Notes: generated by a model from the sequence alone, not told the origin. A stretch of 64,000 nucleotides of DNA from an uncultured Planctomycetaceae bacterium (GCA_963833105.1 CAWHWU010000033.1:29030-93029), one strand, 5' to 3'. Positions 34,640-64,000 are shown, counted from the first letter of the stretch. Program-made: numbers and translations.

Positions 34640-35470
34640 ATGACAGACGTGACGCATCCTCAGAAATCCTTGCTCTTCCCCGCGTTTGCCGGCTTTCCGG
34701 ACGTCGTGTGCGATGTGACTGATATTGCAGATGGTGCAACATCGGTCCGATTGTCTGAGAAAGTTCTCAATTTTGATGCTTTGCCGAATCGGAGAGGGCT
34801 GACGAAGCTGTGGTGCTTTGCCATTGACGACAGGAGACTGCGGATTCTTGCGTCCTGCGAATCCCTAACGCAGCTCTTCATGGATGGGCTACGGGTCGGC
34901 GATTTGTCCCCCTTGGCGCACGGCCTGACGCTCGAAACGCTCTACCTGGACACCGCGCCGAAGATTCAGTCGCTCGATTGGGTAGGCGCGCATGGCGACT
35001 TAAAGAGGCTTGGCATCACTCACTTTCGGTCGGTGACCTCGCTGGGACCGTTGGCCGGGCTGACCCAACTTCAGGCGCTCGCAGTCGCCGGCTCGATGTG
35101 GAATCGGATGACCGTCGAATCGCTCACGCCGCTCTCCAATCTCACGGCACTGACGTTTCTGCATTTAACAAACCTCAAGCCTGTGGACGTTTCGCTTGAG
35201 CCGTTGCACGGACTGACGGCGCTCGAAGAACTGGAGTGCGCCAACTTTTACCCGATGGAAGAATTCGCGAAGCTCGCGGCGGCGCTCCGCCAGACGCGCT
35301 GCGACTGGTTTGAACCCTGCGTGCGGTTCCCTCATGTTGCGTGCAAGAAATGCGGACAACAGGAACTTGTCTTGCTAACCGGAATGGGTGCACGGACTCT
35401 TTGCCGAACCTGCGATCAAAAGCGCGTGCGAAAGCATGAAGACGCGTTTTGGGCCATCGCCCGACCATGA
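34640..35470 (+). CDS. leucine-rich repeat protein with a C-terminal CxxC...CxxC zinc-ribbon-like motif
   Basis: Repeated LxxLxxLxL units (LTQLFMDGLRVGDLSPLA, LETLYLD, LKRLGITHFRSVTSLGPLAGLTQLQALAV, LTALTFLHLTNLKPVDVSLEPLHGLTALEEL). Then CKKCGQQ...CRTCDQ. Confidence 0.75.
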   Translation: MTDVTHPQKSLLFPAFAGFPDVVCDVTDIADGATSVRLSEKVLNFDALPNRRGLTKLWCFAIDDRRLRILASCESLTQLFMDGLRVGDLSPLAHGLTLETLYLDTAPKIQSLDWVGAHGDLKRLGITHFRSVTSLGPLAGLTQLQALAVAGSMWNRMTVESLTPLSNLTALTFLHLTNLKPVDVSLEPLHGLTALEELECANFYPMEEFAKLAAALRQTRCDWFEPCVRFPHVACKKCGQQELVLLTGMGARTLCRTCDQKRVRKHEDAFWAIARP

Positions 35471-35559
35471 ATGACGACCGAGCGGTTTTAGGCTGTAAAT
35501 TGGGCTGAGTTCAGTCGTCGTGCCCTATCGCATTTTCTGTGATGGCATCGCACAAAGAG

Positions 35560-35577
35560 CCAGCTGCGTCCCCTTTT
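35560..35577. repeat. right arm CAGCTGCGTCCCCTTTTC of the 18-bp inverted repeat
   Basis: It is the reverse complement of 34292-34309. Fifteen of its nt are identical to the right arm of the 32242 hairpin. Confidence 0.8.
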
Positions 35578-35586
35578 CCCACCACC

Positions 35587-35794
35587 CGAAGTCGAGCCGC
35601 TCCCGCTCACGAGCCCCTTGCTCAAATTCGACAACGTCCTCTTTGCGGGGCACACGGCCGGCATGAACATCGAGTCCAAGTACGACACGTTCAAGATGTG
35701 CGCCGAGAGCCTGGTCAAGCTCCACAGCGGCGGCTGGCCGGCCGAATGCGTCGTCAACCTCCGTGGCGTCACGGGCTGGAAGTGGCAGAAGTAA
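35587..35794 (+). pseudogene. 3'-terminal remnant (last about 68 codons plus stop) of a paralogous 2-hydroxyacid dehydrogenase gene
   Basis: It aligns by eye to 30037-30246 with about 14 substitutions in 208 nt (EVEPLPLTSPLLKFDNVLFAGHTAGM...GWPAECVVNLRGVTGWKWQK). No upstream coding part is present. A GGATGAAGG-type tract follows, as in the intact gene. Confidence 0.85.
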
Positions 35795-35817
35795 TAGAAA
35801 GGATGGAGGATGAAGGA

Positions 35818-37331
35818 CTTTACTGTCGGAATCATCGTCGTTGATCGGGGCGTAAGGGGGGTAAGCGTTTGCGTTTTTGGTAGTGGTAGAAGCGTGCGGT
35901 TTCGTTGCGTCGGAGTTGGCGGGTCGCGGAATTGGCGACGGATTCGGGATGCAAGAGGTTCCATTGCTGTTGCAGAGTTCGGGCGATGAGTTGGCGGACT
36001 TGAGGAACGCTGAGAGCCGGTGTCGTTTGTCGTCCCTTAAGTGATTCGCTCACGAGGAACCAGGTCGCCAGGAGCGAGAGTGTTTGATGGTGATGCCAAC
36101 CTTGCCAGGTCCGCGCTTGGTAGTCGGCCAATCCGGCTTCGCTTTTGCCGCGCCGGATGGTTTCCTCGACGCGGCGTTCGGCGGAGATCACGCGCGCAAA
36201 CTCGGCGGCGGGAGTGCTCGCCGATGCGTTGGACAAATAGATGTCGTCGTGTCGCAGGTCGTGTTCGTCGCGATAACGCGTGAGGATCAAGACCTCGGCG
36301 TAGGGCAGTTTGCGACGGTTGTCCATGGTCTGCACGTGCGGAACGACGGCGATCTCCACGAACAGCGGCCCCTTTTCGCCATCACGCACGTCGATCGACT
36401 GCCACGCCCCTTCAGGAAGTTGATCGCGAATGCGGGTCACACTCACAAACGGACGAGCGGTCGGGCCGCCGGGCCCGCAGTGGGGAACTTCCTGGCCGTC
36501 CAGGATGCGGGCCGTGATGTTACTCGGAATGGCCAGCACGTAGCGTTCTCCCAATTCGTGCAAATCTCGGCGAAAATGGGTCACTTTCCCAAATTCGTCG
36601 TCAGCCGTGATCCAGGCATGTGGCAGGATCGGGCCGCGGGTCCGGATCATCTCCAGAAGCTTGCGCGTGTCGCGTCTGAAAGCGGACCTGAGGCGGGACG
36701 CCGGCCGTACGGCAGCGCTGGCGATCTTTCGTCCATTCCTCGGGCAGATACAGTCGGAAGTCGCACAAGGCGTGTTCGCGTCGCGAGACGTAGGCCAAAT
36801 AAACACCGACTTGGCAGTTGGTGACTTTGCCCAACCGGCCGCACCATTGTTGGGCCGCGCCGACCGATTTCCGGCCCTGCTTGGGAAATGCCGAAGGATC
36901 GATGACCAGCACGCCATCGGCCTCGCCCAGCGTGGCCGCGATCTGGCCGCACAACTCGTCCATCAACGGCACGTGGTTCCAGGTCGAACTGCCGATGAAG
37001 TGCTGCAGATCGTGGCGATCCTGATCTTGCTCGTAAGCGATCGCTTCCGTGTTCTTGCGAGTCACGTTCGACAACAACCCTTTGCAAAACTGCTGAACAT
37101 GTTGCCGTTGACGGTCATTCGACAAACCGTCCAAAAACGGCTTGAGAAAAACAGAGAGCTCCGCGGGCAATCTCCTGACATGGTCGGGCGACACCTCGCA
37201 TTGTTTCAGCATCTGCTCCTTGCGCAATATAAAACGACGATCCATCGCCAGTCTCCCATAACTGATCCTTCGTTTGGAAGATCTCGATCTGGCAATAACT
37301 TAAAGACGATCAGCTCCTTCCGACAGTAAAG
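35818..37331 (-). mobile_element. IS701-family insertion sequence (1514 bp), 14-bp perfect TIR CTTTACTGTCGGAA, 4-bp AGGA target duplication
   Basis: 35818 CTTTACTGTCGGAA pairs with 37318-37331 TTCCGACAGTAAAG. AGGA is at 35814-17 and 37332-35. Confidence 0.85.
35832..37245 (-). CDS. IS701-family DDE transposase; frameshift about 36675
   Basis: N-terminal part (ORF 36601..37245): FLKPFLDGLSNDRQRQHVQQFCKGLLS...VLVIDPSAFPKQGRKSVGAAQQWCGRLGKVTNCQVGVYLAYVS...LYLPEEW. C-terminal part (ORF 35832..36917): HAWITADDEFG...YVLAIPSN...EETIRRGKSEAGLADYQARTWQGWHHHQTLSLLA. Confidence 0.85.
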
Positions 37332-37345
37332 AGGATGAAGGATGA

Positions 37346-38625
37346 CAGTAGTTCCCAGTTTGACTCATGCGTCTAAGTCGACGTAAGGCTTGGAACCATC
37401 GTGCAATTGGGCGACCACTTCGAGGGCGATCCATTCGAGCATGCGGCGGAGTCGCAATTTTTCTTGGTGAAGCGTCATCGAATCTCCGTACCCTTCAGCC
37501 AGCATGGTTTCGTGAATCCACACCCAGACATTCCGCAGCAGAAGCGCGACCACGACGAATAGCAGCCGCAGATGGGGATCGCGGGTGCAGGTGTAGATGC
37601 GCGCCTGGCGGGCTTGGCGGTAGCTCGTCTCGATACCGAAGCGTGTCCGATACAGTTCGCGGATCTCCCGTGGGGAACCGCTGACTCGCCAAGCGGCAAA
37701 CAGGAGCTTTTGTTGCTTGTGTTTGCCGTCTTTGCGGTTCTTGTGAGTCCGGTAGGCCACATAAACCGAGACTGTCACCGACTGCTTCTTGTTCTTCAAC
37801 GTGTGCAAGTAGCATCCGACGTTCTGACGTCGGATCCAATGCAGGCCCCGGAGTTTCCGCCGCTTCTTGGGGATTCGTCCCCGAAACATCACCGGCATCA
37901 CGAAGGGAATCTGTTGCTCTTGTAAAAACCGCGTGACGGTGACGTTGAAGAAGGCGCGATCCAACAAAAAACGTCGGATTTTCAGCTCTTTTGCGCGGAT
38001 TGTCGCCAGCAGGCGATTCAACGCCGTGACCGTCGTTTCGTGTCGCCGCACCCAGGTGGCGGCCAAAGTGTAGCGCACTCCGTGGGAGACAATGCAGGCG
38101 GTGGCGTAGGCATGGAATTTTGTGGTTCCCTGTCGCGGCTTGCCGTAGTAAATCTCGTTGCGGCTGCGTTCGGCTCCCCGTAGTAAGGCACCAAGTGCCA
38201 GTCGATCGCCACTGTCCAAGCGCGACGCTGGAGGCGCCGCGGCAGATGATCCGTCAGCGCAGCATTCAACCGCTTCTCCAGAACCCGAAGCGTCTTGGGC
38301 AGTCCCGCCTCCAACGCGCCCATCACGCTGGTGTCCGACGGAGCGTTCGCCAAATCCCGACAGGCCGCGAACACCGAGATCGTTTCGCGGCTGGCGCAAG
38401 ACGATGTTCCAGACAACCGTCGCCGTACATTTCGGCCCTCGATCCTTCAACTGCATCGAGTTGATCAGCCAACTCAGGGCCCACTGATGAACCTCGCTAC
38501 TCGATATGGTATTTCTGTTCCTTGAACGCATGAGCTCCCTCCTTGGGCTTCTGGTTCTCTACACAAACCAGTCTGAGGAGGGGCCTTGCGTTCCTCAACG
38601 TCAACAGGCCGACTTGGAACTACTG
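37346..38625 (-). mobile_element. ISH3-like (IS4-superfamily) insertion sequence (1280 bp), termini CAGTAGTTCC[C/A]AGT, 5-bp GATGA target duplication
   Basis: 37346 CAGTAGTTCCCAGTTTGAC; 38602-38625 is the reverse complement of CAGTAGTTCCAAGTCGGCC. GATGA is at 37341-45 and 38626-30. The terminal 14-15 nt are identical to the MITE ends at 30276 and 30539. Confidence 0.8.
37365..38531 (-). CDS. ISH3/IS4-like DDE transposase; two frameshifts (about 38160, about 38400)
   Basis: AIDWHLVPYYGEP (in ORF 38018..38416) continues as RNEIYYGKPRQGTTKFHAYATACIVSHGVRYTLAA...FLLDRAFFN...YRTRFGIETSYRQARQA (a Y-x2-R-x3-E-type motif). Confidence 0.75.
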   Translation of the reverse strand: MRSRNRNTISSSEVHQWALSWLINSMQLKDRGPKCTATVVWNIVLRQPRNDLGVRGLSGFGERSVGHQRDGRVGGGTAQDASGSGEAVECCADGSSAAAPPASRLDSGDRLALGALLRGAERSRNEIYYGKPRQGTTKFHAYATACIVSHGVRYTLAATWVRRHETTVTALNRLLATIRAKELKIRRFLLDRAFFNVTVTRFLQEQQIPFVMPVMFRGRIPKKRRKLRGLHWIRRQNVGCYLHTLKNKKQSVTVSVYVAYRTHKNRKDGKHKQQKLLFAAWRVSGSPREIRELYRTRFGIETSYRQARQARIYTCTRDPHLRLLFVVVALLLRNVWVWIHETMLAEGYGDSMTLHQEKLRLRRMLEWIALEVVAQLHDGSKPYVDLDA

Positions 38626-38707
38626 GATGAGTAAAACCGGCTTTGTTTCATCCTTCATTCCGCCGAAGGGCGGATTCAAAGCAACGCTTCCGCCTTCATC
38701 CTTTCCG

Positions 38708-41700
38708 TCATCGTTCCGCCGCCTCGAGCGGTTTCAGCGAATCAAGACGTCTTGTGGCCAGGCCGGAATACAACATCACCGCCACCTGTTGATCCTTGTC
38801 GACGACGGCGCAGGCGACCTTCAGCCCGTCCGGAGAAACCGCCAGCAACCAACCCGTTGCATGGGTGGTAATCTCGGTGGGAAGGGGGAGCGTAAACAGG
38901 TCCTTCTTCTGATCGACGTCCCAGACGTGGACGCCGCGTTGCTCTCCGGAAACGGCAATCAATAGCCGTCCGTCGGAGGAAAAAGCGAACGGCCCGCTAT
39001 CATGCGCCAAGCCGGGCAAGTCCCCAAGCTTGCGGCAACGCTGGGGGTCCCAAAGCTCGATCACGCGGTCGGAACCGAGTGCCATCGATCCGTCCGGCGC
39101 GAAGGCGGCGAAATCATTGAAGCGGTGCGAACTGTGCAGCAGGGATCGCAAGTGTCCGCTCGGCACTTCGTACAGGTTGACGTCCCGTCCCTCGTGGGGA
39201 TGAAAGGCCGTCAGCAGGTCGCCGCGGGCAGACACGGCGACTCCGTCGGATGCCGACTCGTTGAAGAATGTCCCGCCGATTGTTTTGAGCTCGGTTCCCG
39301 TGGCGCCGTCATACAGGTGCACAGACCGTTCCCTGTCCCTTGGGCGGCCTTGCATCACGAGCAGTGACCCGTTTGGGCGGAAACGCGCACCAGAGGGCGA
39401 ACTGACCCGCGGGCAGAGTGATGCTCAGGCGTTTCGCTCCCGTCGCGGCATTCACGAGGTCGACACGCTGCTCGCCGCCGATGGCCAGTTCGCCGCCGTC
39501 GTGGGAATAGCAGACGTTGCGCGCGCCCTCGAGCGGATCGTCTCGGAGGACAGAGGGGCGCATCGTGGCGACGTTCCAAATCTGCAAGCCGGCCCGCTTG
39601 GGTTTGGCAGACTGCCAGGCAATTGCCAATCGGCGCCCGTCGGGAGAAAAGTCCATCCGCCCTGGCAGGGCCTCGGCACGATTCGTCGTTAAGTCCGTCC
39701 ACTGCGGCGCGACGGACATGTCCCACAGATCGACCCGGCCGTCCCGCGCGGAGGTGGCGAGGCGCCGACCGTTGGGCGAGAAGGCGACGCACCAGAAGCC
39801 GATCGGCAGCCCGTCTTTGCCGATCCGCGGCGGGACCGCGACCCAACCTTGCCGGCTGGGAAGATCCCACAACCGCACGGCTCCGTCCCCACCGCAGGAG
39901 GCGACCTGCCGCCCGTCCGGCGAGAATTGGACCGACTCGATATGGTCGAAGTGGGCGGAAAATCGGCCCCGCAAACCCCCGGTGCGGACGTCATGGATGT
40001 TGATCGTGCCGCGGCCGGCCGAGGCAAGCATCTCGACGTCGCGGCTGAAGGCTGTGGAGTGCGACACGTCCGACTGCTGCACGCCGCGGGGCACCATGTC
40101 CGGCATTTCCCAGAGACGAACGGTTTCGTCGTCGCCCGCCGAGGCGAGCAGATGCCCGTAAGTTCCCCAGGAAATGGCCTGGATCCGCGAGCTATGGGCG
40201 TTGGCCGATTTCAACTCCCGTCGCTTCGCCACATCCCACAGCTTGAGCACGCCCGCATGATCGCCCGAAACGAGCAGCTTGCCCGTCGGATCGAACAAAA
40301 CGCAGACGACCTCGGCCTCGTGTCCCATCAGCGTGAAGCGTTCCCGCCCGGTTTCGGCGTCCCAAACCTTGACCGTGTGGTCCTCGCTGGCTGTTGCCAG
40401 GAGCTTCTGGTCGGGGGAGAAATCGACCCAATTTACGTCGTGTTTGTGCCCGCGGCAGACACACACCGCGAGGCCGGTCTGGACGTCCCAAACGCGGGCC
40501 GTCTGATCGCGCCCCCCGAAGCGATCCGCGATCCGTCGCGAGAAAAGCTGACCGAAAACACGTCCCCTGCGTGTCCGATCAGCGACGCCACGCGGGGCAG
40601 CGTTCCCACGGATTCGCCCGGATGACACAGCCGCCACAGGTAGTACCAATCAAATCCGCGGCGGTCCCCCTGGCCGGCCGCAGGGATGTGATGCGTCAGC
40701 AAGGTCGCCATCTCGTCGCCGGCATGGAGGTTGTCGCGGAGCCGTTCCGAGTTCTCGTTCCACAGTTCAAATGCGTCGCGGATGTCGCGCGTGTAGGATC
40801 GCACCGCGCCGCCCTGTGACTCCTCGACCTGGAAGGTCATGGCTTTGGGGAGCTGTTGCCACCAGAAAAGGGCGGTGGCAAGCACTATCGCGAGCCCGAC
40901 CAGACCGATGCGGACCGCCCGGCGCTGCCGGCGACAGGCCTTCGCCGCGCGGCGAACAGGCCGAGCGGCCGGGCGGTCACGGGCAAGCCCGCCGACAGAC
41001 GCTCGAGGTCGCGGGCCAGCTCCTCGGCCGTCGGATACCGCCGCGCCGGCTGCTTTTCCAGGCACTTGAGGCAGATCGCTTCGAGGTCGCGGGGAACCTC
41101 GCGGCGGAATTTCGTGGGGGGATGCGGCTCGTCGATCGCCAGGCGGCGGAGCGTGTCGATCTCGCTGCGCCCTTCGATCGGACGCCGGCTGGTCAACAGC
41201 TCGTACAGGATCACTCCCAGCGAATAGACGTCCGCCGCCGACCCGACGTCGCGAGTCTTGCCTTCGGCCTGCTCGGGCGCCATGTAGGCGGCCGTGCCGA
41301 GCACGGCGTGCGTCGCGGTGACCTCGTCGTCGGAGCCGAAGAGCTTGGCGATGCCGAAATCGGTGATCCGCGGCACGCGCTCGTCCGCGCCAGGCGGCTG
41401 GGGCGGTTCGGTGGAGGCCGGACGTGGGACCGCTTCCAAGAGGACGTTGGCCGGCTTCAGATCGCGATGCACGATCCCGGCCGCATGCGCATGGGCGACG
41501 GCCCGCGCCATGAGCAGCAGCCAGCGGGTGGCAAGGGGAATCGGCACCGGCCGCTTGGCGTCGAGCTCCTGCCGGAACCACGTCGCCAAGTTGGGCCCGT
41601 CACACAGTTCCTCGACGATGTAGGGAAGCCCGTCGGTCTCGCCCGCCTCGTAGACGGGGATGATATTCGGATGCCGCAGGGCCGCCAGCACGCGGGCCTC

Positions 41701-41989
41701 GCGGATAAAACGCTGCCCGGCCTCCTTGGAGACGAGGGTTTCGGCCCGCGCGATCTTGAGCGCCACGAGACGGTCCAACTGCGGGTCGCGCGCGCGAAAG
41801 ACGATCCCCGATCCCCCGGCGCCGATGCGGCCCAAAAGCTCAAAACGGCCGAACCGTCGAGCGCAAGCCTTCCGCCGTGGGGCCGGCCCACGTCACGGGC
41901 TGCGACATCGTCCACGTGTCGGCTTTTTGGTCCGTGAGAGGCTTCTGGAGAGGACCAAGACCAGTGGACGCAGGATCGGGTTCCGTCAT
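38708..41989 (-). CDS. Ser/Thr protein kinase - TM segment - WD40 repeat protein (about 1090 aa); at least 4 frameshifts (about 41850, about 40950, C-run 40512-40517, about 39390)
   Basis: N-terminus MTEPDPAS..., then RFELLGRIGAGGSGIVFRARD, VALKI, HRDLKPANVLL, DFGIAKL, APEQ. TM segment IGLVGLAIVLATALFWW. Then many WD40 units (GHKHDVNWVDFSPDQKLLATASEDHTVKVWD and similar) spread over ORFs 40885..41835, 40433..41581, 39309..40649 and 38708..39358. Confidence 0.85.
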
Positions 41990-42319
41990 CTCAGATGGAT
42001 TGCCTCCAATTGCAGCCCCACGAGCGCCGGTCAAAGCACTTGCGAACTGCGGGGCCTCGCAGGACGGGAAATGGTGTGTCGACCCCATTTGGAGTCGCCG
42101 CCGTCGCGCGCGTGCCCGTTTGCCTTCCTTGGACAGACCCGATTCTAAATGGGCGGCGGCGGCAAATCACGACAGATTCCGCGCAATTTCGCCCGCCGCC
42201 AGAGACATTTCGAATGCGCAGGGCTAGCCGGCCCGGTTCCGAGCCTCGCTCTGGCGGTCGGCCACCTGTCGCATAGAATTCGTTTGGCGGCGAAGGAGAG
42301 CCGTCACAAGGAGTTGGGC

Positions 42320-43668
42320 GTGGCAGGCGATGAAACAAGCAAAGACAATCAGCCCGATGCGGGGGCCACCGATTTGCGGGAGTCGATCCGGCGCTTACCG
42401 ACCACCTCGGGCGTTTATCTGATGAAGGACGCGCTGGGGCGAGTGATCTACGTCGGCAAGGCGGTCAATTTGCGGAGCCGGGTCGGCAGCTATTTCAACT
42501 CGGCCGCCGCGGAGGATATCCGCACGGCCAACCTCGTCCCCGAGATTCGCGCGGTCGACTTCATCGAGACGCAAAGCGAGGTCGACGCTCTGTTGCTCGA
42601 AGCCCGCCTGATCAAGGACGTGCAGCCTCGCTTCAACCAGGAACTCAAGGACGACAAGACCTTTCCGTACCTGGAAATCCGTATCCGCGAGGATTTTCCG
42701 CGGGTCGAATTCACCCGCAAGCCGCGGCCGCGGGGAACGAAGCTGTACGGTCCCTTCACCAACGCGAAAAAGCTGCGGGCGGCGATCGGCGTCTTGCAGA
42801 AGATCTTCCGCTTCCGCACCTGCTCGCTCGACATCGCCGAGGGGGACGAACGCTGGCGGTGGTTCCGGCCGTGCCTGTTGCACAGCATCAACCAGTGCAC
42901 GGCCCCCTGCAACCTGCGGATCAGCCGCGAGGATTACCGCCGCGGCATCCGGCGGCTGATCTTGTTCCTCGACGGCAAGAAGACGCGGCTGCTGCGGGAG
43001 ATGCGGCGGGAGATGGAGCAGGCGTCGACCAAGCTGAAATTCGAGAAGGCGGCCCGCATTCGCGACGAGATCAAGTCGCTCGAGAACCTCGACCTGTGCG
43101 GCAAGCTCGACGAGAACGTGCAGCCCGAGGTGTTTTACATCGACCCGAAAAAGGGGATGGCCGGGCTCAAGAAGATTTTCGATTTGCCGCACTTTCCCCG
43201 GCGGATCGAAGGGGTCGACATCGCCCACCTGCAGGGGGGCGAGACCGTCGCCAGCCTGGTCCAGTTCATCGACGGCTTGCCGTTCAACCACGGCTACAAG
43301 CGCTACAAGATCCGCACGGTGCAGGGGGTCGACGATTTCGCCTCGATCCGCGAGGTGGTGAGCCGGCGGTTTTTGCGTCTGGCCAAAGAGGGGGAGTCGC
43401 TCCCCGACATCCTGCTTGATCGACGGCGGGAAGGGGCAGTTAAGCTCGGCGGTCGAGGCGCTCGAGGCGATCGGCTCGAAGCCGCCGCTCGTCCTGTCGC
43501 TCGCCAAGCGGGAAGAAGAAATCTTTCTCCCGGGTGAGTCGGAGCCGCGCAGACTCTCGAAACACTCCTACGCGCTGCAGACTCTTGCAATACGTGCGCG
43601 ACGAAGCACATCGCTTCGCGCAGCACTATCATCACATTTTGCGACGCAAATCGACGCTGGGGGAATGA
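42320..43668 (+). CDS. uvrC: excinuclease ABC subunit C, short form without a C-terminal (HhH)2; two frameshifts (about 43410, about 43590)
   Basis: GIY-YIG (SGVYLMKDALGRVIYVGKAVNLRSRV). UVR domain (FEKAARIRDEIKSLE). Endonuclease domain (RIEGVDIAHLQGGE...PDILL/IDGGKGQL...LAKREEEIFL...QYVRDEAHRFA). The GTG start at 42320 has AAGGAG 6 nt upstream. The stop at 43666-68 overlaps the next ATG (ATGA). Confidence 0.85.
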
Positions 43669-54304: not shown

Positions 54305-55450
54305 TCAGCTCTCCAGGCGCGGGCTTCCGCGGGTCCATCGGTCCATCTCTAACAAGTTCGCTAGAGACGGGGAGGAATCGAATTGATGGGCATCCAGGAC
54401 AGATCGGCACACACGGGGAATATCGGTGAATCGCAGCTCCCCGGCAAGAAACCGCTCGACCGCGACCTCGTTGGCCGCATTCAACACCGCGCCGCAAGTC
54501 CCCCCGCGCCGCGCCACCTCGTACCCCAACCCAAGGGCGGGAAACGCCTCCAAATCGGGGGGTGCGAACTCCAGCGTCATGGTTGTCGACCAATCGACCC
54601 TCGGGCTCGTCCCCTCCCAGCGCTCCGGCCACGTCAGTGCGTATTGAATCGGCAGACGCATGTCGGGCGGGGAGAGCTGAGCCACGACGGAACCGTCGCG
54701 GAATTCAACAAATGAATGCGCGATCGACTGTGGATGAATCATCACGGCGATCTGGTCGACGTCAAGCCCGAAAAGCCACTTGGCCTCGATCATCTCGAGG
54801 GCCTTATTCATCATCGTGGCCGAGTCGACGGTGACCTTGGGCCCCATCGCCCAGGTGGGATGGGCCATGGCCATCTTGGGCGTCACGTCTCGCATCTGGG
54901 CGGCCGAAAAGCGGCGAAACGGGCCGCCGCTGGCCGTCAGGACGATCCGGCGTAATTCGCTGCGATTTCCCGCGTGCATGGCCTGAAAAATGGCGCTGTG
55001 CTCGCTGTCGACGGGGATCAGCGAACCCCCCGTCCGCTGGGCCAGTGCCGTCACCAGCGGGCCGGCCACGACCAGCGTTTCCTTATTGGCAAAGGCGACC
55101 CGCTTGCCCGCTTCGAGAGCGGCCCAAGTGCTGCGGAGGCCGGCCGCTCCCACGATGCCGGCCACCACCATTTCGACGTCCGGCTCGCGCGCCACCCGCT
55201 CGATGGCCGCCGAACCGAAGAGCAGCTCGGTTTCGCGCGGAAAGGCCTCTCGGGGGATCGAGTTCCGCAGACTCTCATCGTTGACGATCACCCACCGGGG
55301 CCGGTGTCGGGATGCCTGCTCTGCCAAGACTTCCCATTTCCGGTTCGCCGCGATGGCCACGCACTGCAGGCGGTCGCGATGCGCGTGCACGACATCGAGG
55401 CAGTTGGTCCCGATCGATCCGGTCGAGCCCAATACGGCAATTTGCTTCAT
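54305..55450 (-). CDS. dxr: 1-deoxy-D-xylulose 5-phosphate reductoisomerase
   Basis: [21 protein letters not shown]...ANKETLV...[11 protein letters not shown]...LTASGGPFR...[20 protein letters not shown]. Confidence 0.95.
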
Positions 55451-56358: not shown

Positions 56359-57513
56359 TCAGTCGTCAAACGGCAAATCAAATTGATCGTTGGTCAAGCT
56401 GGAGTGGATGTCGGTCCAGATCTGCGGATCGATATTCTCAGACACAAAGTGGGCCGAGCCGTCGAGCATCACGACATGCACCCCGTTCGGATGCATGCTG
56501 CGAGCCGTCGCCTGGATCGTCGCCTCGAGTCCATTGACGAAATTCGACGCGCACGGCATGCCCATCAGGGTCAGTTTTGGAAGTCCGTATTTGGCGATCA
56601 AGGCCGCGCAACCGGCGAACTGATCCGCCGTCGGCTGGGAACTATTCGGCGGACTCGTTGTGGGGAAATTGAAAATGCCATCCCCAACCGTGCCGCTCGA
56701 CCCGGCCAGGCCCAGCGCCCACACGCCTCGCGGATCGAGTGGATCGATGCCGGCACGAACCTCGTCAATCGCCACGATCCGTGACGTTCCGCCCGGAAAG
56801 TCACGTAGCCGATACGAGAAATTCACACCGACGACTCCGGTTCCCCACACCACCATGTTGGCATTCAACAGATCGGGATTCGCGACATTGTTTCCATTGG
56901 TGCAACCCGGCTGCGTCAGGTAGCAGCCCTTCTGCGGACCGTAGTTTGCCGCGTAGTTCCCGCGCGCGTAAGTGTGTCCCGTGGCCGTTCCGGCCGCCAA
57001 AGCCCGCTCGTAGGGCTGCTGGTTGAAGGGATCGCTGGGGCAGAGCATGAAATTCAAAGTTGTCTCACGGGCCGCCGCATTCGTCGGATCGTCGACCGGC
57101 AAGCTCTGATTGAATGCTTTGTAGAGCGCATTTTGCTCCAGATTCGGCAAGAGCATGATGGCCCAGTTGGCCAAGATGCGATCGGGCCCCTTGGCCGGCG
57201 AATAGCCGTCGGCGACGCGATCGATGGCGCCGATTGAAATCTGGCCCCCACCGAGCGGCTCGCCCGGCCCGCCATTCCACACGACCCCGGCCGGCAAGCA
57301 CAAGTTCGCATCATGATAGTTGTGCACCGCCAACCCGAGTTGCCGCAGGTTATTGAAACACTGAGTTCGCCGCGCCGCTTCCCGCGCGGCCTGCACCGCC
57401 GGAAGAAGCAACGCCGCCAACAGACCGATGACCCCAATGACGACGAGCAATTCGATTATCGTGAAGCCGCCTGTCTTGTCTCTTGATCGCATTTCGTACC
57501 GGTTGGCCTTCAT
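56359..57513 (-). CDS. DUF1559 domain protein with prepilin-type N-terminal methylation domain
   Basis: [53 protein letters not shown]...HPNGVHVVMLDGSAHFV. The start could be 57513 or 57492. Confidence 0.88.
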   Translation of the reverse strand: MKANRYEMRSRDKTGGFTIIELLVVIGVIGLLAALLLPAVQAAREAARRTQCFNNLRQLGLAVHNYHDANLCLPAGVVWNGGPGEPLGGGQISIGAIDRVADGYSPAKGPDRILANWAIMLLPNLEQNALYKAFNQSLPVDDPTNAAARETTLNFMLCPSDPFNQQPYERALAAGTATGHTYARGNYAANYGPQKGCYLTQPGCTNGNNVANPDLLNANMVVWGTGVVGVNFSYRLRDFPGGTSRIVAIDEVRAGIDPLDPRGVWALGLAGSSGTVGDGIFNFPTTSPPNSSQPTADQFAGCAALIAKYGLPKLTLMGMPCASNFVNGLEATIQATARSMHPNGVHVVMLDGSAHFVSENIDPQIWTDIHSSLTNDQFDLPFDD

Positions 57514-57532
57514 ACGCCAAAGGGCAGAGGTC

Positions 57533-57952
57533 TTATCTTCCGTTGTCATCAACTGGGGGGGGCTTCTGCGCCACCGGCAGGCAGCAACACGAGGAGGAGA
57601 TTTTAAAATCTGCATATCTCCATGCCTCCTTAAAACGCAGTGCGACGCCAGCAGCTTCTGCCCTCTTTCCCTGCAATCTTAAGCTGCGCTCCAGGCCGTA
57701 CAAGGACCAGCCGTTTTCCGGGTGACGGATTAGATCGTCTCGGTAAACCTTCTCCGCCTCCCCGAACCTTCGTAAAGCCATCAGAGTTGCTCCCAGTGCA
57801 TGTCGCACCGGTACTACCCACGCTGGCGGCTCCGTATATCTCAGAGTGTCTTCGCGACGTACGGCCTCCTGTAATGCATTGACCGACCTATCTGACTGGC
57901 CCATGCGATAAGCGATCTCGCCCTCAAGCATTTCCTCAGCAACGTCCAACAA
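57533..57952 (-). pseudogene. C-terminal fragment of a TPR-like protein gene, truncated by the ISKra4-family element at 57953
   Basis: The reading frame runs without a stop straight into the IS terminus. The fragment (RYTEPPAWVVPVRHALGATLMALRRFGEAEKVYRDDLIRHPENGWSLYGLERSLRLQGK) looks like the conserved C-terminus of a larger TPR protein. No N-terminal part is adjacent. Confidence 0.7.
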
Positions 57953-59750
57953 GGGTACGGTCCCTGCATGGCTGAGGTTTATGCTGCGTTTTGCAGGGTT
58001 TCATGGGATATGTGGACGCGGGCCTGGATTGGATGGGTACTGCGTGGCGTGAGGGTGCGGGCGTAGACTTCGGTCCAGACGCCGCTCAGGACCAGCATGC
58101 GGAGGTTGAGGACGACCTGGAGTCCGTGACGTTTCCAGCGCATTCCAGAGAGCTTGACCCGTTGCGTGAAGAGTGTCTTGCAGGCGGCCTCGGTCACGCC
58201 GCTGCCGATGGGCAGCCCCGCGTCACGGAACGCGTGATACCGCATCCAGACGCTGCGTCGCCGCAGGTACGAGCAGGCCGTTTCGTATGCGGCAGCCTGG
58301 GTTTTGTTCTTCGTTCCGGACCGAGATTCCAACGCCGCGGCCGAGTGCAGGATCCGGTGGACGGCGTTCGGTTCTTGTTTCAGCACCCGGCGCATGCGGC
58401 GCGCCCAGGCTGTCGCAGAGGCCTCGTCCAGGTTCAGGGATTCGGCGATTGTCGTCAGCCGCGAGGCCGCATGGTAGTAGTCCACCACCCGCTGCCACCT
58501 CAGACGCGTCTTCGTCACCGGGTGTCGCATGCGGCACAGGCGTTTGGTGTAGAACGCTTCTTCCTGATCGCCCGCATCGCTGATATACGCCAGTTGCGGG
58601 AGCGGGTCGGTCCACTGCCGCAGGATCTCCTGCAGCAGAGCCAGCAGTTCCTCGGTCATCGTCTGCTGGCCGAGTTCCGGAGCGAAGCCCAGCGACACGG
58701 TTCCCAGCCGCCGTCCCCGCCGGTCATGCACCGAAACCGTTGCGCAGGTGGCCACCTCGAAGAACCCGTGGGGCTGGTTGCCGACCGTGATCCCGTCACG
58801 GCCTACGGCCAGCGTGGGCTGGCCGCGTCCCTTCCGGGCAAAGGCCCGTTGGAGCAGGTCCCTGATCCGCCGGGCCTGCGCTTCCCGCCGCAAGGGAGCT
58901 GTGGCGTCGGACAGGCTCGAGAGCAACTGGCGTAATCGGCCAACGCCCATCGTCACTCCGTGATCGCGTTTCAACAGATCCAGAAGGGTGCGTTGCGTGG
59001 CTCCTGCCTGGCCGGCATGAAACCCCACCCGTTCGGCCAGGGCGGGCGTGCAGCCGTGCCTCAAACCCAGCGCTTCTTCCAGGGGAAACAGCGACGGCTC
59101 CCCGGCCGCATCCGAGCGGTATCCCAGCCGCCGCAGCGTGGCCGGACCAAACAGCGTCGAGATCTCGTGCGGCGTGGCTTCCGCACGACGCCGGTAGGTT
59201 TCGCCTTCGTGCCTGACGTGCGTGGGCCAGTCCGCATGGCTGGAAACTTCCAGCCGGTTCAGCACGGCCTCCAGAATCTCGCGGCCCATCTCCCGCAACA
59301 CGGCCTGCAACTCCTGCTCGAATTCGAAGATCGTCTGGGGAGTGACTTGACCCTGCATCAGTCTTGCGACCAGCGGCCACAGCCTCTCCGCGTGCCGCTC
59401 TTGAAGCGCTCGCGCCTGGGCGATTGCCTGAACCACGTCTCCTTGCAACAGCAGACAGAAAACGATTCCATATGCCATGAGGGTGTCCTTTCCCTGTCGA
59501 GGCCGGTTTTTCCTGAACACAGCCTGACAGAAGGACACCCTCTTTTCATCAGCCAGCCAACTCCCGAGCCGGTGTCTCTCGAAACACCCCCCAAAACGCC
59601 GATTTCACCCGCCACAGCCGGATCGCACCCCTCGGAAGCCGTTATACGCCATCGAGAAGCCTGCAGAACGCTTCGAACACGCCAAAGGAGGCGGACTGCG
59701 GGAGTCAAGACATAGTTCAGCGTCGGAGTCGTCTTGGTAGGCTGCGTGGT
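57953..59750 (-). mobile_element. ISKra4-family insertion sequence, copy 1 (the 57953 end is exact; the other end is only approximate, between 59540 and 59798)
   Basis: 57953 onward is identical to 63254 onward (offset 5301). I could not find a terminal inverted repeat, so the high-coordinate end is unresolved. Confidence 0.75.
57979..59538 (-). CDS. ISKra4-family transposase
   Basis: About 500-519 aa. The C-terminal LPIGSGVTEAACKTLFTQRVKLSGMRWKRHGLQVVLNLRMLVLSGVW is the characteristic ISKra4-type tail. The start may be the ATG at 59478. Confidence 0.75.
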   Translation of the reverse strand: MSFCQAVFRKNRPRQGKDTLMAYGIVFCLLLQGDVVQAIAQARALQERHAERLWPLVARLMQGQVTPQTIFEFEQELQAVLREMGREILEAVLNRLEVSSHADWPTHVRHEGETYRRRAEATPHEISTLFGPATLRRLGYRSDAAGEPSLFPLEEALGLRHGCTPALAERVGFHAGQAGATQRTLLDLLKRDHGVTMGVGRLRQLLSSLSDATAPLRREAQARRIRDLLQRAFARKGRGQPTLAVGRDGITVGNQPHGFFEVATCATVSVHDRRGRRLGTVSLGFAPELGQQTMTEELLALLQEILRQWTDPLPQLAYISDAGDQEEAFYTKRLCRMRHPVTKTRLRWQRVVDYYHAASRLTTIAESLNLDEASATAWARRMRRVLKQEPNAVHRILHSAAALESRSGTKNKTQAAAYETACSYLRRRSVWMRYHAFRDAGLPIGSGVTEAACKTLFTQRVKLSGMRWKRHGLQVVLNLRMLVLSGVWTEVYARTLTPRSTHPIQARVHISHETLQNAA

Positions 59751-59798
59751 CAAACTCGCAACAAGTCTACCTTTAGCGTGTTGACGGTTGCACTCTTA

Positions 59799-60830
59799 TC
59801 ACGGCAATGTGGCAACAGAAATCGGCACGTTGACACGCTGTTGACCGTCGTCGCCGATTACGACGTCCGAACGGATTGTGTCACTCGACGGATGGCTCAC
59901 GATCTCGGCGTCCAAAACGTATCGAGGGATGCCGCTGGTGTCGGACGGCTTCTGCAGGACGCATATTAACCAGGATGGTTTCTTGAGAATGGACAGATGA
60001 TCGTTTGGCTTACGCGCGTACAGAACGATTTGCCTCTTTTTGCCAACGAGTTCGCGGCTGGTCATCGCACTGAAAAAAAGCGTCTGATCAGTCCAGACCG
60101 AGTCATGCACGCGCACTTCGATTGGCAACAGAAGATGATATTTTTCCGTTCCCTGAACTGCGTCAATTGCGCACACACCCCGTAAAACACAATGATGCTG
60201 AGGCGCACGACAACGAAACACGAGTGGTGTTTCGCCCACAATGGTTCTCTCATTCTGGACCAGAAATACGCCATGCTTGGCAACTGGATTTGTGCTTAAC
60301 GGAATCACCTCGAAAGACGGATCGGAACATGCCACTGAGTCAACGGCCAAACTATACGCGGAGTTGCCACCCGCATAGCCGAGCGTCACCCGGCGCTTGA
60401 CAAGCTCTCCGGGTCGTGCATCCCACACAACAATGCGCGTGGGTGCCAAAGTGGGTCCCGATTTGCCAAACCAGGATAAATACAGTTCATGCGGGCTCGC
60501 CTTGTCATTGGCCGCGATTACAAGTTTTGACGAGTGCGGCCCCACGGCAATTGGAACGTCGATCACGATGTTGCTCGTTTGTCCAGCACCGATGGCTGGC
60601 GGAATATGTGCGATTTGACACGAACAGGATGTCGCGACGCTATAAAGTACCAACGGCCCCGTTCCGGCATTCCTCACAGGCAGCTCAAGTGAGTGGGAAC
60701 GAGCCGGCGGCAGGACGCCAAAATCAATGGTCGACGAATCGACCTCAAAACGTGGCGGTTGTTTGGCGTTGCAACCGGCACCGAGGAACCATAGCAGACA
60801 AATGCTAACTCTCAGCGGCACGCTCTTCAT
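59799..60830 (-). CDS. DUF1573 domain lipoprotein
   Basis: Lipobox MKSVPLRVSICLLWFLGAGC. DUF1573 unit IDFGVLPPARSHSLELPVRNAGTGPLVLYSVATSCSC. Codon usage is visibly lower in GC than the rest of the window. Confidence 0.75.
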   Translation of the reverse strand: MKSVPLRVSICLLWFLGAGCNAKQPPRFEVDSSTIDFGVLPPARSHSLELPVRNAGTGPLVLYSVATSCSCQIAHIPPAIGAGQTSNIVIDVPIAVGPHSSKLVIAANDKASPHELYLSWFGKSGPTLAPTRIVVWDARPGELVKRRVTLGYAGGNSAYSLAVDSVACSDPSFEVIPLSTNPVAKHGVFLVQNERTIVGETPLVFRCRAPQHHCVLRGVCAIDAVQGTEKYHLLLPIEVRVHDSVWTDQTLFFSAMTSRELVGKKRQIVLYARKPNDHLSILKKPSWLICVLQKPSDTSGIPRYVLDAEIVSHPSSDTIRSDVVIGDDGQQRVNVPISVATLP

Positions 60831-60899
60831 GCGTGTGACTCCGTGACTCCTTGCGCCTTCGGTTTCGAGGACCAAGCGCGACAACCAGGGCCAATCCAC

Positions 60900-61490
60900 T
60901 TATGCAAAGGGCATCCACATGAGCGGCTCGTTCCAATAGACGTTGCGGCGGTGTCCCAAGGTTCTGCACATCGAGTCCGCGCGCTCTTTTGACTTTGCCA
61001 CACAAAGGACGTTCCCAGTCCATTGGCGGTTTAATCGCTCGACATCTATCGAGAAAGGCAACAATGGTGGATCCAGGATAACTGGTTGCCCTGTTTTGGT
61101 GAGGCCCAATAGCAAAATGAAGTGCCCGCTATCACGTGCGCCCTCAAGCTGCTGCAAATGCAAGATTGCCGGCACCGGCACGCACGCCAATTCATCGCTT
61201 CCTATCTTAGCTGCGACGGGAAAGAGGCCAAGTTTGCGTGCACCTACTTCGATATCGAAAAATGAATTCTGCCCTTCTTTGCCGGGTGCAAGAAGAGATC
61301 GCACCTGATCGAAACTTACATCGACTCTCTGAAGTTTGCAAAGAGTGAATAGGCACGTCACTCCGCACGCCAGGTATTCCGCGGGATCGACACGAGTCTG
61401 GCGACTTTTATCGGGATGTGGCTGTGCGCGAGTTACCGCATTGCCGGATGCCGCTAAAATAAGCAGAGCTGTCAAAGCTGATAGCATCAT
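60900..61490 (-). CDS. secreted peptidase C39-like (papain-fold) domain protein
   Basis: Signal peptide MMLSALTALLILAASGNAVTRA. Catalytic-Cys context EYLACGVTCLFTLCKL. His context DSGHFILLLG...VILDP. The spacing fits C39. Confidence 0.65.
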   Translation of the reverse strand: MMLSALTALLILAASGNAVTRAQPHPDKSRQTRVDPAEYLACGVTCLFTLCKLQRVDVSFDQVRSLLAPGKEGQNSFFDIEVGARKLGLFPVAAKIGSDELACVPVPAILHLQQLEGARDSGHFILLLGLTKTGQPVILDPPLLPFSIDVERLNRQWTGNVLCVAKSKERADSMCRTLGHRRNVYWNEPLMWMPFA

Positions 61491-61526
61491 GTTGCCCCCA
61501 AAGGATATCTGTTCAGTCGTTGACCA

Positions 61527-62745
61527 TCATGATTGCCGCTCTCTCAACCAGCGTCTTAGTGCGACTGAGAGGACCAGAAGCGCCAGTACCGCGACGTTAA
61601 CCCACAGGAAGAGTCGTCGCGGGCTTTCAACCAGACTGGGAACTGCAGCGTTCCTCACCGTGGGGTTATGCTGCTTCAGCGCATCTACTGACGTTAGCCC
61701 TTTCCTGGCCAGCGCATCCAAGTACGCTTCCTGCGACTCGGCTCCAACTCGATAGGTCACATTTTGAATCTCATCTCGCACCAGCGTACCTACAGGCAAC
61801 TTGAAGCTAAATAACGTGTCGTCGACAGGTTCATTAAAATGCGAAGCGGCTCGATCCACTTCAATTAGTGTGGCCCCGAGCTCTTGTCCATAAAACGGGG
61901 AATTCTTGTCCATCCAAAACAACGCCACCCTCCGCGCGGATAGGCACCCAGATTCCTGGTACAATCTCTGCCAACTCGATCTTCGTGCGCTCCAAAGGCA
62001 TCGATGGATTGCGGTGGGTAAAGGCCTCAATCTCAACTGGCATAAAGCCCTTATTGGGATCTAAGGTAAGCCGAACTCCGATGTTCGAGCAGCGTGCACG
62101 GCTTTTTGGATCCGGTTGAGCACTTAACACAATGTACTGGCCCTTTCGGTCAACAGCCTTCACGGATCGACCGCGGATTAGATCAACATAAGAAAGGTCC
62201 CCATCAAGATTGCGATACGCGTTCACGTAGGCGGCGGCGAATGGGCTAGGATTAGTTCTTGCGTAGGATCGTAGTCGTGCGTCAGCTCGCTGTCGGTTAT
62301 ACACAGTCTCGCTTGCTCCATCCCAGATGATTACGGAGCCCTTGCTGATTGAGCCGGTAATCGTTTCTACAACGTCGATGCGAAACTTGCCATGTGAATA
62401 GACCTGTCGGGTCCTCGCTGTATGTGCCGGAATAGGTTGTCCTCCGGGCGCGTCGACTCGAAAATACGGCGTCGACGTACTCGCGGGCTTGCTATTCGCA
62501 GCTAGCGTAGCGCCGTGGTGATCAGAACCACCACCACCAATGTATCCCCAACGCTCCTGTTTGACACTGATATCAAACGCATTAATCGATTCACAAGCCC
62601 GTTCGTACGCCGAGAGCACAGAGTCAACGGTAATCCCAGCTGGTGACGCTGCCGGTGCGGCCATGGTCTTCGATTGACCAGTGTGAAGCCCGATTCCAAT
62701 CATGATTCCTGCCAGGACGCATCCGGCAACCCGCAGTTCCTTCAT
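61527..62745 (-). CDS. hypothetical exported protein (LolA-like fold suspected) with a C-terminal TM anchor; frameshift about 61920
   Basis: N-terminal signal/TM MKELRVAGCVLAGIMIGIGL. ORF 61861..62745 joins ORF 61527..62036 at ...PIRAEGG(VV)/FWMDKNSPFYGQELG.... The C-terminus is SPRRLFLWVNVAVLALLVLSVALRRWLRERQS. GGGAG lies 7 nt before the ATG. Confidence 0.55.
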
Positions 62746-63019
62746 TTGTCGTGCTCCCTAGAACGTCGAGCGGAACATTTCAACTGTACTTTCTGCCGTG
62801 CCCGACAGGTCGACAGTAAGGCCTCCGAAGTTCACCGCAGGTGATCTCGGCGGCGCCTTCTCATTTATCGTGCGAAGAGAGCTGCGTTTCTGCGCGGTTT
62901 TCAACGAAATAGCAATCGGATACCTCGGCACAACCTCAATCGCGTTAGGCTCCACCTGTCGCTCCCGCCGCGATTTAGGCTCACGGACGTATCAAGGAGC
63001 CCTTTTGTGCCGCTCCAAC

Positions 63020-63241
63020 CTAGTTTTTAGGACAGCAAGCAGTATTGACATTCGACACGGTGAATTGGGTACAACCTTGCCCACAAGCCCATGGCGTCCC
63101 GCCGAAGCAGTAACATCCTTTGCCGCCGAGCCCCGCAGCGGTACAAGCACCGCCGGAATGCTTTACGCCACAACCGCAGCTGGTGGTGTTTTGCGTCAGA
63201 CCGCATTGGTATTGGCCACCGCAGCCACACACGGTTTGCAC
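63020..63241 (-). CDS. Cys/Gly-rich small protein (73 aa; 12 Cys, 16 Gly), possibly 5'-truncated by the adjacent IS
   Basis: (V/M)QTVCGCGGQYQCGLTQNTTSCGCGVKHSGGACTAAGLGGKGCYCFGGTPWACGQGCTQFTVSNVNTACCPKN. The GTG start lies 12 nt from the IS end, and the frame is open into the IS. Confidence 0.4.
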   Translation of the reverse strand: MQTVCGCGGQYQCGLTQNTTSCGCGVKHSGGACTAAGLGGKGCYCFGGTPWACGQGCTQFTVSNVNTACCPKN

Positions 63242-63253
63242 AAACGATTCGCT

Positions 63254-64000
63254 GGGTACGGTCCCTGCATGGCTGAGGTTTATGCTGCGTTTTGCAGGGT
63301 TTCATGGGATATGTGGACGCGGGCCTGGATTGGATGGGTACTGCGTGGCGTGAGGGTGCGGGCGTAGACTTCGGTCCAGACGCCGCTCAGGACCAGCATG
63401 CGGAGGTTGAGGACGACCTGGAGTCCGTGACGTTTCCAGCGCATTCCAGAGAGCTTGACCCGTTGCGTGAAGAGTGTCTTGCAGGCGGCCTCGGTCACGC
63501 CGCTGCCGATGGGCAGCCCCGCGTCACGGAACGCGTGATACCGCATCCAGACGCTGCGTCGCCGCAGGTACGAGCAGGCCGTTTCGTATGCGGCAGCCTG
63601 GGTTTTGTTCTTCGTTCCGGACCGAGATTCCAACGCCGCGGCCGAGTGCAGGATCCGGTGGACGGCGTTCGGTTCTTGTTTCAGCACCCGGCGCATGCGG
63701 CGCGCCCAGGCTGTCGCAGAGGCCTCGTCCAGGTTCAGGGATTCGGCGATTGTCGTCAGCCGCGAGGCCGCATGGTAGTAGTCCACCACCCGCTGCCACC
63801 TCAGACGCGTCTTCGTCACCGGGTGTCGCATGCGGCACAGGCGTTTGGTGTAGAACGCTTCTTCCTGATCGCCCGCATCGCTGATATACGCCAGTTGCGG
63901 GAGCGGGTCGGTCCACTGCCGCAGGATCTCCTGCAGCAGAGCCAGCAGTTCCTCGGTCATCGTCTGCTGGCCGAGTTCCGGAGCGAAGCCCAGCGACACG
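63254..64000 (-). mobile_element. ISKra4-family insertion sequence, copy 2 (cut by the window end)
   Basis: It is identical in every comparable ORF translation to 57953-58699. ORFs 57979, 58173 and 58223 reappear at exactly +5301. Confidence 0.85.
63280..64000 (-). CDS. ISKra4-family transposase, C-terminal part (the 5' end lies outside the window)
   Basis: The 239 aa are identical to the C-terminal 239 aa of the 57979..59538 product. Confidence 0.8.
   Translation of the reverse strand, partial: VSLGFAPELGQQTMTEELLALLQEILRQWTDPLPQLAYISDAGDQEEAFYTKRLCRMRHPVTKTRLRWQRVVDYYHAASRLTTIAESLNLDEASATAWARRMRRVLKQEPNAVHRILHSAAALESRSGTKNKTQAAAYETACSYLRRRSVWMRYHAFRDAGLPIGSGVTEAACKTLFTQRVKLSGMRWKRHGLQVVLNLRMLVLSGVWTEVYARTLTPRSTHPIQARVHISHETLQNAA

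Follow-up and report, generated by a model that had tools for sequence, protein, structure and literature searches.

Two insertion sequence copies in a low-GC tract carrying part of a TPR gene and part of a conserved planctomycete gene cluster

A 64,000-nucleotide stretch of DNA from an uncultured Planctomycetaceae bacterium (GCA_963833105.1 CAWHWU010000033.1:29030-93029; this whole stretch is referred to as the window) carries at its right end, from 57953 to 64000, two copies of an insertion sequence (IS) with a short string of genes between them, which the original prediction regarded as the cargo of a candidate composite transposon inserted into a TPR gene. We found that these genes are an IS-damaged fragment of a cluster conserved in planctomycetes, and we propose, with moderate confidence, that two IS hits fell within one low-GC tract carrying both a TPR gene and this cluster, the order of the events being our reconstruction. 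Although the IS pair resembles a composite transposon, transposition of the unit into the TPR gene most likely did not occur. The features of the region are as follows (aa, amino acids; ORF, open reading frame; TM, transmembrane segment).

57533-57952, minus strand: 3' remnant of a TPR-family gene for a ~540-aa protein, comprising its final ~139 codons and truncated exactly at the end of IS copy 1
57953-59630, minus strand: IS copy 1, complete, 1678 bp, ISKra4-like, both ends fixed by ten identical public copies
59478-57979, minus strand: transposase of IS copy 1, 499 aa from an ATG, in an ORF (57979-59538) open from a GTG at 59538
59799-60830, minus strand: gene 4, DUF1573 lipoprotein (Pfam PF07610) with the lipobox LGAGC
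60805-61490, minus strand: gene 3, C39 double-glycine-type cysteine peptidase with a signal peptide, in its 228-aa form; the window ORF ends at 60900
61527-62745, minus strand: gene 2, exported protein of predicted LolA fold with a C-terminal TM anchor, 405 aa after frame correction
63020-63253, minus strand: gene 1, 3' part, Cys/Gly-rich secreted protein, its frame open across 63253/63254 and without a start codon
63254-64000, minus strand: IS copy 2, first 747 of 1678 bp, oriented as copy 1, predicted to end at 64931

The IS element and the truncated TPR gene

The segments 57953-58699 and 63254-64000 were identical at 747 of 747 bases (0 mismatches) at an offset of 5301, and the identity broke sharply at 57953/63254; no third copy was found in the 64-kb window. 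The pair of identical direct copies was thus as originally described, and the ISKra4 family named for it was indeed the best NCBIfam model of the transposase (NF033572), although at 138.7 bits against a cutoff of 205, with positions 28-422 of the 422 in the model matched. The transposase passed the Pfam model UPF0236 (28.8 bits against a cutoff of 24.3), and its best plasmid matches by tblastn were all annotated ISKra4 transposases, at 26-27% identity. To judge from these matches, the element appears to be a distant ISKra4 member that scores under the NCBIfam equivalog cutoff. The family (p-MULT 4 Mutator-like DDE; Guerillot et al, 2014) has already been reported in Planctomycetes, and a preference for promoter-proximal insertion has been described for some of its members (PMC3942029).

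The ends of IS copy 1 were set at 57953 and 59630, because ten public copies matched the window at 100% identity for a length of exactly 1678 bp; the right end, placed from an imperfect inverted repeat, agreed with these boundaries. The termini, GGGTACGGTCC... and ...GGATCGCACCC, are imperfect terminal inverted repeats matching at 9 of 11 terminal positions, both ends share a subterminal GCGTTTTG..GGGT.TTTC block, and each 3' strand terminates in C. When the ends were compared with the ISKra4 description (terminal inverted repeats of 18-39 bp and a terminal C), they agreed with it, with the repeats being imperfect. Like the ISKra4 family, the element has a single transposase ORF, imperfect terminal inverted repeats ending in C, and 8-bp target duplications. 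The last of these were seen among the ten public copies (L042-L051), of which three (L044, L045, and L046) are flanked by perfect 8-bp direct repeats and four (L042, L043, L047, and L048) by near or partial ones, and 8-9-bp direct repeats are what the insertion of p-MULT/ISKra4-type, Mutator-like prokaryotic elements yields (PMC3942029). The flanks of IS copy 1, by contrast with such a pattern, are TCCAACAA and CTCGGAAG, with no target duplication of any kind, which indicates that both flanks were not derived from one simple insertion.

The exact 499-aa transposase was present on 52 public contigs in the protein collection, and the 1678-bp element is plainly active and recently expanded. The ten identical public copies lie in ten different contexts in several assemblies of one sequencing project; their neighbors are often other IS types (IS66, IS3, DDE_Tnp_1, and IS630-like), and one copy has landed within another transposase gene. 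IS elements are very abundant in the host lineage.

The TPR fragment to the left of IS copy 1 had 122 homologues, the best of them 63-66% identical, and the tblastn homology of the family ended exactly at the IS boundary, 57952/57953. A full-length gene of ~540 aa could be rebuilt in one of the homologous contigs (L004, 6011-7634), so that the window keeps the last quarter only, and the N-terminal three quarters were absent throughout the 64-kb window. These results support the prediction that the TPR gene is truncated at the IS end and that its N-terminal part is not next to copy 1. An apparent continuation of the TPR homology for 66 nt into the IS, returned by tblastn, was rejected as spurious; it has a stop codon inside and almost no identities. 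TPR homologues listed as 120-130 aa (L003, 3834-6369; L004, 6011-7634) are ~540-aa genes split by frameshifts in long-read assemblies, and a 440-aa ORF called on the opposite strand of the TPR gene in L004 is probably an artefact.

With all genes on the minus strand, the transposase of IS copy 2 reads into gene 1 and the cluster, whereas that of copy 1 reads away, into the TPR fragment. It had been stated that both transposases point toward the cargo, which is incorrect for copy 1; read-through into the cargo, suggested on that basis, is applicable to IS copy 2 but, owing to the orientation, not to copy 1. Genes 2-4 would then be transcribable only from IS copy 2. Promoter and terminator scans of the cargo gave nothing above shuffled sequences.

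A conserved gene cluster between the copies

The gene combination between the IS copies was not recognized in the original prediction as a described system. It is indeed not described in Pfam, NCBIfam, PADLOC, or the literature searched, but it recurs as a conserved cluster. Four IS-free planctomycete loci (L018-L021), sought also with a hand-made degenerate DNA pattern, hold the same gene order, that is, gene 1 for a Cys-rich secreted protein, gene 2 for a LolA-fold protein, gene 3 for a C39 peptidase, gene 4 for a DUF1573 lipoprotein, and gene 5, the last of which is held by two of the four. In L018 (GCA_003427375.1), a 155-aa protein, a LolA-like protein (P0126, 38% identity), a C39 protein of 226 aa, a DUF1573 protein of 346 aa, and a 372-aa protein follow one another with no IS, and L019 has the same order, with a 417-aa gene 5 product and a PMT-type glycosyltransferase; the cluster order was also present in L021 and, in part, in L020. 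The DUF1573, C39, and LolA-like proteins of the window were 33-40% identical to the orthologues of the IS-free loci over their full length. In all, the gene set recurs with its order unchanged in five or more planctomycete loci. The presence of the same four genes without IS elements at this locus in related genomes had been named beforehand as evidence against the composite transposon; they do occur so, in the same order, in distant genomes, but not at a syntenic locus.

The Cys/Gly-rich small ORF of the original prediction does correspond to a Cys-rich gene, but it has no credible start of its own and represents the 3' part of a longer gene. Its frame is open into IS copy 2 without a start codon, and in both position and Cys pattern (CG...C, CxC, C, C) the remnant corresponds to the C-terminal portion of the 155-164-aa proteins of the four IS-free loci; together, these features identify it as the 3' remnant of gene 1. 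In the full-length proteins, which are Cys-rich, an N-terminal hydrophobic segment is followed by a leader motif, namely LTQDEMARVWGS, LSPQDLALVQGS, LTQDALSDIRGG, and, in L021, LDADQLQLVSGR. The positions L(-12), M/L(-7), V/I(-4), and G(-2) are occupied accordingly in all four, and S/G(-1) in three, with R in L021, a pattern that constitutes the canonical double-glycine leader. The start codon, the hydrophobic N-terminus, and the double-glycine leader of gene 1 would thus have been removed in the window by IS copy 2, and the cluster is probably crippled in the source genome, with gene 1 lacking its start and leader. A 65-aa ORF between genes 1 and 2 (62758-62955, minus strand), taken from a public gene call, is probably spurious; it had no homologues, and the equivalent spacers elsewhere (100-350 nt) are without such a gene.

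Gene 2, described earlier as one gene at 62745-61527, encodes an exported protein with a C-terminal TM anchor as stated, but it is not an intact ORF, because its 1219-nt span is covered in the window by two overlapping frames (61861-62745 and 61527-62036). If one T is dropped from the T4 run at 61915-61918, the two frames merge into a 405-aa protein, which aligns with the family end to end; the fit continues across the junction and takes in the invariant PGxWxP motif. A different 405-aa protein, P0002 of a Logan contig, was rejected as the gene 2 product: its frames meet at 61990, the PGxWxP motif is lost, and the family alignment favors a join at 61915-61918. A word-seeded search had returned only the query's own record for genes 2 and 3, which would make them ORFans; this was discarded for gene 2 when a HMMER scan with the frame-corrected 405-aa protein found 314 representative relatives, typically of 360-420 aa and with end-to-end alignments. 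The family has no Pfam model. An AlphaFold2 model of gene 2, with the family alignment as input, reached a pLDDT of 81 and a pTM of 0.70, and its best Foldseek matches in the PDB were LolA3, LolA, LolB, and DUF1329 (E ~1e-9, TM-score ~0.6 on the target), almost all of the top 40 being LolA, LolB, or LolA-like with a probability of 1.00. The model thus places gene 2 in the LolA superfamily fold, with the LolA-like domain followed first by a helix and then by a C-terminal TM that carries a basic tail.

Gene 3 was originally described as a signal-peptide C39-like peptidase at 61490-60900. The Peptidase_C39 assignment holds, since the Pfam model (PF03412) matched with E = 2.4e-13, above the Pfam cutoff, but the 196-aa window ORF is cut short by a 1-nt difference at 60913 and is without the C-terminal anchor of its orthologues. 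The 228-aa form (P0004, L002) ends in a TM anchor with a basic tail, and the anchor is kept in the L018 and L019 orthologues. A profile of the C39 orthologues matched LahT150 (6mpz, E = 7e-8), ComA (3k8u), and PCAT1, and its ACGV and NHF align to the catalytic CG and HF of LahT150 (6mpz) and ComA (3k8u). The orthologues have a signal peptide and end in a C-terminal TM followed by Arg/Lys, from which the positive-inside rule predicts a periplasmic catalytic domain. A double-glycine substrate gene lies near the C39 gene in all four IS-free loci; in the window, the leader part of this gene is gone. Gene 4 was confirmed as the DUF1573 lipoprotein at 60830-59799 (35.5 bits against a cutoff of 26.1, residues 52-141), and along its full length it shares 35-36% identity with the gene at the corresponding position in L018 and L019.

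Compared with the window, two Logan contigs, L001 (ERR10755945) and L002 (SRR28042096), show differences at 62454, 61990/61989, and 60913 only, and these are transitions and 1-nt indels. The indel sites at 61989-61990 and 60913 both toggle between GGAGCGC and GGATGC on the minus strand, and the GGAGCGC form, which is the window's at 61990 and that of L002 at 60913, agrees with the orthologues at both sites. The frameshifts in genes 2 and 3 of the window are therefore likely to be sequencing or polishing errors and not biology, and the toggling may reflect a motif-specific, possibly methylation-linked, basecalling error. A window-wide replacement of GGATGC by GGAGCGC, however, yielded ORF gains at 7 of 60 edited sites compared with 37 of 400 random insertions, that is, no enrichment.

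Composition of the tract and origin of the arrangement

The DNA between the IS copies (59631-63253) has a guanine-plus-cytosine (GC) content of 54.3%, whereas stretches of equal length in 1-57952 average 62.1% (standard deviation [sd] 1.7, minimum 57.9), corresponding to z = -4.5. The AT-richness claimed for the cargo thus persisted when it was computed, and it was also seen at third codon positions, where the GC content (GC3) was 0.52-0.58 in the inter-IS genes and 0.72-0.79 in host genes. The TPR fragment, however, lies outside the IS pair and has a GC content of 55.5% and a GC3 of 0.58. Codon usage was scored as the log-likelihood ratio (LLR) per codon for host versus cargo, with the cargo genes left out one at a time. 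The TPR fragment scored -0.276, which is under all of the 48 host-gene chunks of equal size (mean +0.18, sd 0.08, minimum -0.006) and falls short of the chunk mean by ~5.8 sd; the cargo genes scored -0.08 to -0.18, and the transposase was host-like at +0.17. Because the TPR fragment is cargo-like in composition, the low-GC DNA reaches beyond the IS pair. The IS copies sit within the low-GC tract and do not delimit it, so the low-GC cassette bracketed by IS copies, as originally proposed, was not upheld. This result is our chief reason for doubting that a foreign unit entered a host TPR gene, and it favors two hits by a resident IS within a single tract of low GC. The tract was probably acquired horizontally.

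We propose that, in this tract, IS copy 2 would have arisen by simple insertion within the 5' part of gene 1, and that IS copy 1 would be a rearrangement junction, left by an IS-mediated adjacent deletion or, alternatively, by two direct copies recombining with each other. Gene 5 and the TPR gene's first ~410 codons would have been lost at this junction, and the lack of an 8-bp duplication at IS copy 1 would be due to its being such a junction. A simple insertion of copy 2 would place the 8-mer GATTCGCT just past its distal end. Some observations bearing on copy 2 came from L001, which corresponds to 63253..60988 of the window and stops exactly before IS copy 2; of the ~30 IS bases to be expected, it has none. 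From the behavior of de Bruijn graphs, this stop suggests that two alleles coexist in the sample at the 63253 junction, one with the IS and the other IS-free or different in some other way.

Several points weigh against this proposal. The window ends at 64000 inside IS copy 2, and the 5' half of gene 1 is presumed to lie beyond it. No missing part of the TPR gene or gene 1 was found next to the ten other IS copies, and no recognizable remnant of gene 5 was found in 59631-59798. The alignment by which gene 1 was identified is of a Cys-rich, fast-evolving sequence, the compositional argument is based on just 139 codons, and the function proposed for the cluster is a prediction from sequence and fold. 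Moreover, a composite that had formed within the low-GC tract and then moved a short distance would be expected to show equally cargo-like composition on both sides.

A true composite transposon, in which two IS copies captured the truncated gene 1 and genes 2-4, be it in a donor or at another place in the source genome, and the whole IS-cargo-IS unit moved into the TPR gene by means of its outer ends, is the best of the alternatives, and we consider it unlikely. Such a unit predicts TCCAACAA, the 8-mer at the outer flank of IS copy 1, past the end of IS copy 2. The original prediction was right about the IS pair and the truncation of the TPR gene, and both of these fit a composite: two identical direct copies, complete or apparently so, enclose the segment, the TPR gene is severed exactly at an outer IS end, and its N-terminal part lies neither beside IS copy 1 nor elsewhere in the window. 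The IS is clearly active, and the absence of an 8-bp repeat around copy 1 is what a composite would show. The indirect evidence from composition, the cutting of the operon, and the lack of a second location nevertheless leans the other way. The TPR fragment, which lies outside the unit, is atypical in composition like the cargo, while the IS resembles the host; the two inner boundaries each interrupt a conserved operon; and the end of L001 at the inner boundary of copy 2 suggests a coexisting IS-free allele. In addition, the cargo proteins were found in one long-contig context only: at >=90% identity, they were limited to the source contig and two short Logan contigs of the same context, whereas the transposase alone was on 52 contigs. 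Nothing in this distribution points to mobility of the unit.

The same contrast appears when the region is compared with Tn10 and Tn5. As in these composite transposons, two identical direct IS copies enclose 3.6 kb of foreign-looking DNA, with one outer end at a disrupted gene. In contrast to them, the unit in the window has no second location, its "target" gene is cargo-like, and what it carries is no selectable module but a truncated operon; an outer target duplication cannot be seen, since the window stops within IS copy 2. The IS pair can be regarded as ordinary, as an active IS scatters copies and the appearance of a look-alike composite is routine genome dynamics.

An assembly chimera, in which the assembler switched between genomic copies of the 1.7-kb IS so that the TPR fragment and IS copy 1, or IS copy 1 and the DUF1573 gene, are not truly adjacent, is improbable, for long reads normally span a 1.7-kb repeat and the like composition of the TPR fragment and the cluster argues for their physical closeness, even though the contig stems from a long-read metagenome assembly, dozens of identical IS copies exist, related contigs carry long-read-style names (contig_..._np1212) and frameshift-split genes, 1-nt indels are among the differences between the window and the near-identical public contigs, and a switch at the IS would also account for the absent 8-bp repeat at copy 1.

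Possible function of the cluster and neighboring observations

Taken together, the features of the cluster raise the possibility, which we put forward tentatively, of an undescribed planctomycete pathway in which a disulfide-rich protein is exported by Sec, its leader is removed by an anchored periplasmic C39 peptidase without an ABC (ATP-binding cassette) transporter, and the product is handled by the LolA-fold and DUF1573 proteins and possibly by a PMT-type enzyme. The gene 1 precursor would be exported by Sec, and the membrane-anchored C39 peptidase would cut it after G-(S/G) in the periplasm, releasing a disulfide-rich domain of ~110 aa. The LolA-fold and DUF1573 proteins may then serve as a periplasmic carrier or scaffold, with gene 5 and the PMT gene providing accessory factors.

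This scheme has both likenesses to and differences from the C39 domains of the PCAT/AMS exporters (LahT, ComA, PCAT1, and CvaB). The C39 fold, with its aligned catalytic Cys and His, and an adjacent gene resembling a double-glycine substrate are common to both. In the exporters, however, C39 is fused to a transmembrane domain and a nucleotide-binding domain, whereas gene 3 encodes a stand-alone protein of 196-228 aa that has its own signal peptide and a single TM at the C-terminus and is predicted to be periplasmic. The substrate also differs, being 155-164 aa long and Cys-rich, with a hydrophobic Sec-like segment before the leader, and the partners are a LolA-fold protein, a DUF1573 lipoprotein, and a nearby PMT-type glycosyltransferase, with no ABC transporter; no gene for one was found in the cluster in the window, L018, L019, or L021. 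If this is true, the cleavage of double-glycine leaders would take place on the periplasmic side, uncoupled from an ABC exporter. We regard the cluster, as an undescribed variant of double-glycine processing without an ABC transporter, as modestly interesting and as the main value of the analysis. It also gives a first functional context to the ~314-cluster LolA-fold family and to one DUF1573 subfamily.

In its predicted fold, gene 2 is like the beta-barrel-with-lid proteins of the LolA/LolB/RseB type (LolA3, LolA, LolB, and DUF1329), and gene 2 differs from LolA and LolB in its ~10% identity, its extra C-terminal helix, and its TM tail anchor. Elsewhere, the gene 2 domain forms the extracytoplasmic portion of M56 sensor proteases of the BlaR1 type (1000-1500 aa), whose genes are preceded by one for a BlaI-like repressor. 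It was also seen in an anti-sigma-like protein encoded next to an ECF sigma factor and in fusion with a thioredoxin-like domain. These occurrences are as follows.

L014 2359-5457, L006 2528-7027, and L012 982-2382: gene 2 domain in other settings, proteins P0240, P0252, and P0270

Such BlaR1-type and anti-sigma settings suggest a periplasmic binding or sensing module, and by analogy with them, the domain in gene 2 may be involved in ligand binding or sensing and not in lipoprotein sorting.

The gene 5 products (L018, 11030-12148; L019, 5098-6351; 372-417 aa) have the motifs HPDQFLAY, ACGGTHSLFAL, and PWYHALHAL in common and had no Pfam or NCBIfam match. A PMT/ArnT-type membrane glycosyltransferase is encoded near the cluster at 5622-7259 in L018, 6532-8064 in L019, and 259-2073 in L021. 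Neither gene 5 nor the PMT gene was found in the window. Scans of the cargo region with Rfam (57400-64000), for tRNA genes, and with PADLOC were empty, as was a PLSDB search for the LolA-like protein. As a caution of wider use, frameshifts and IS-bounded "cassettes" in long-read metagenome contigs need to be checked against orthologues before they are interpreted.

On its left, the low-GC tract is adjoined by a host-type gene (56359-57615, minus strand) for a DUF1559/H-X9-DG prepilin-like protein, a hallmark of planctomycetes. Its 418-aa ORF overlaps the stop region of the TPR gene, and the real start probably lies further downstream, near 57490. Another host-type gene left of the tract is dxr (54305-55450, minus strand). 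Elsewhere in the window, a second, milder GC dip (~58%) was observed at 34500-39000, followed by the GC maximum of the window (~67%) at 39000-43500.

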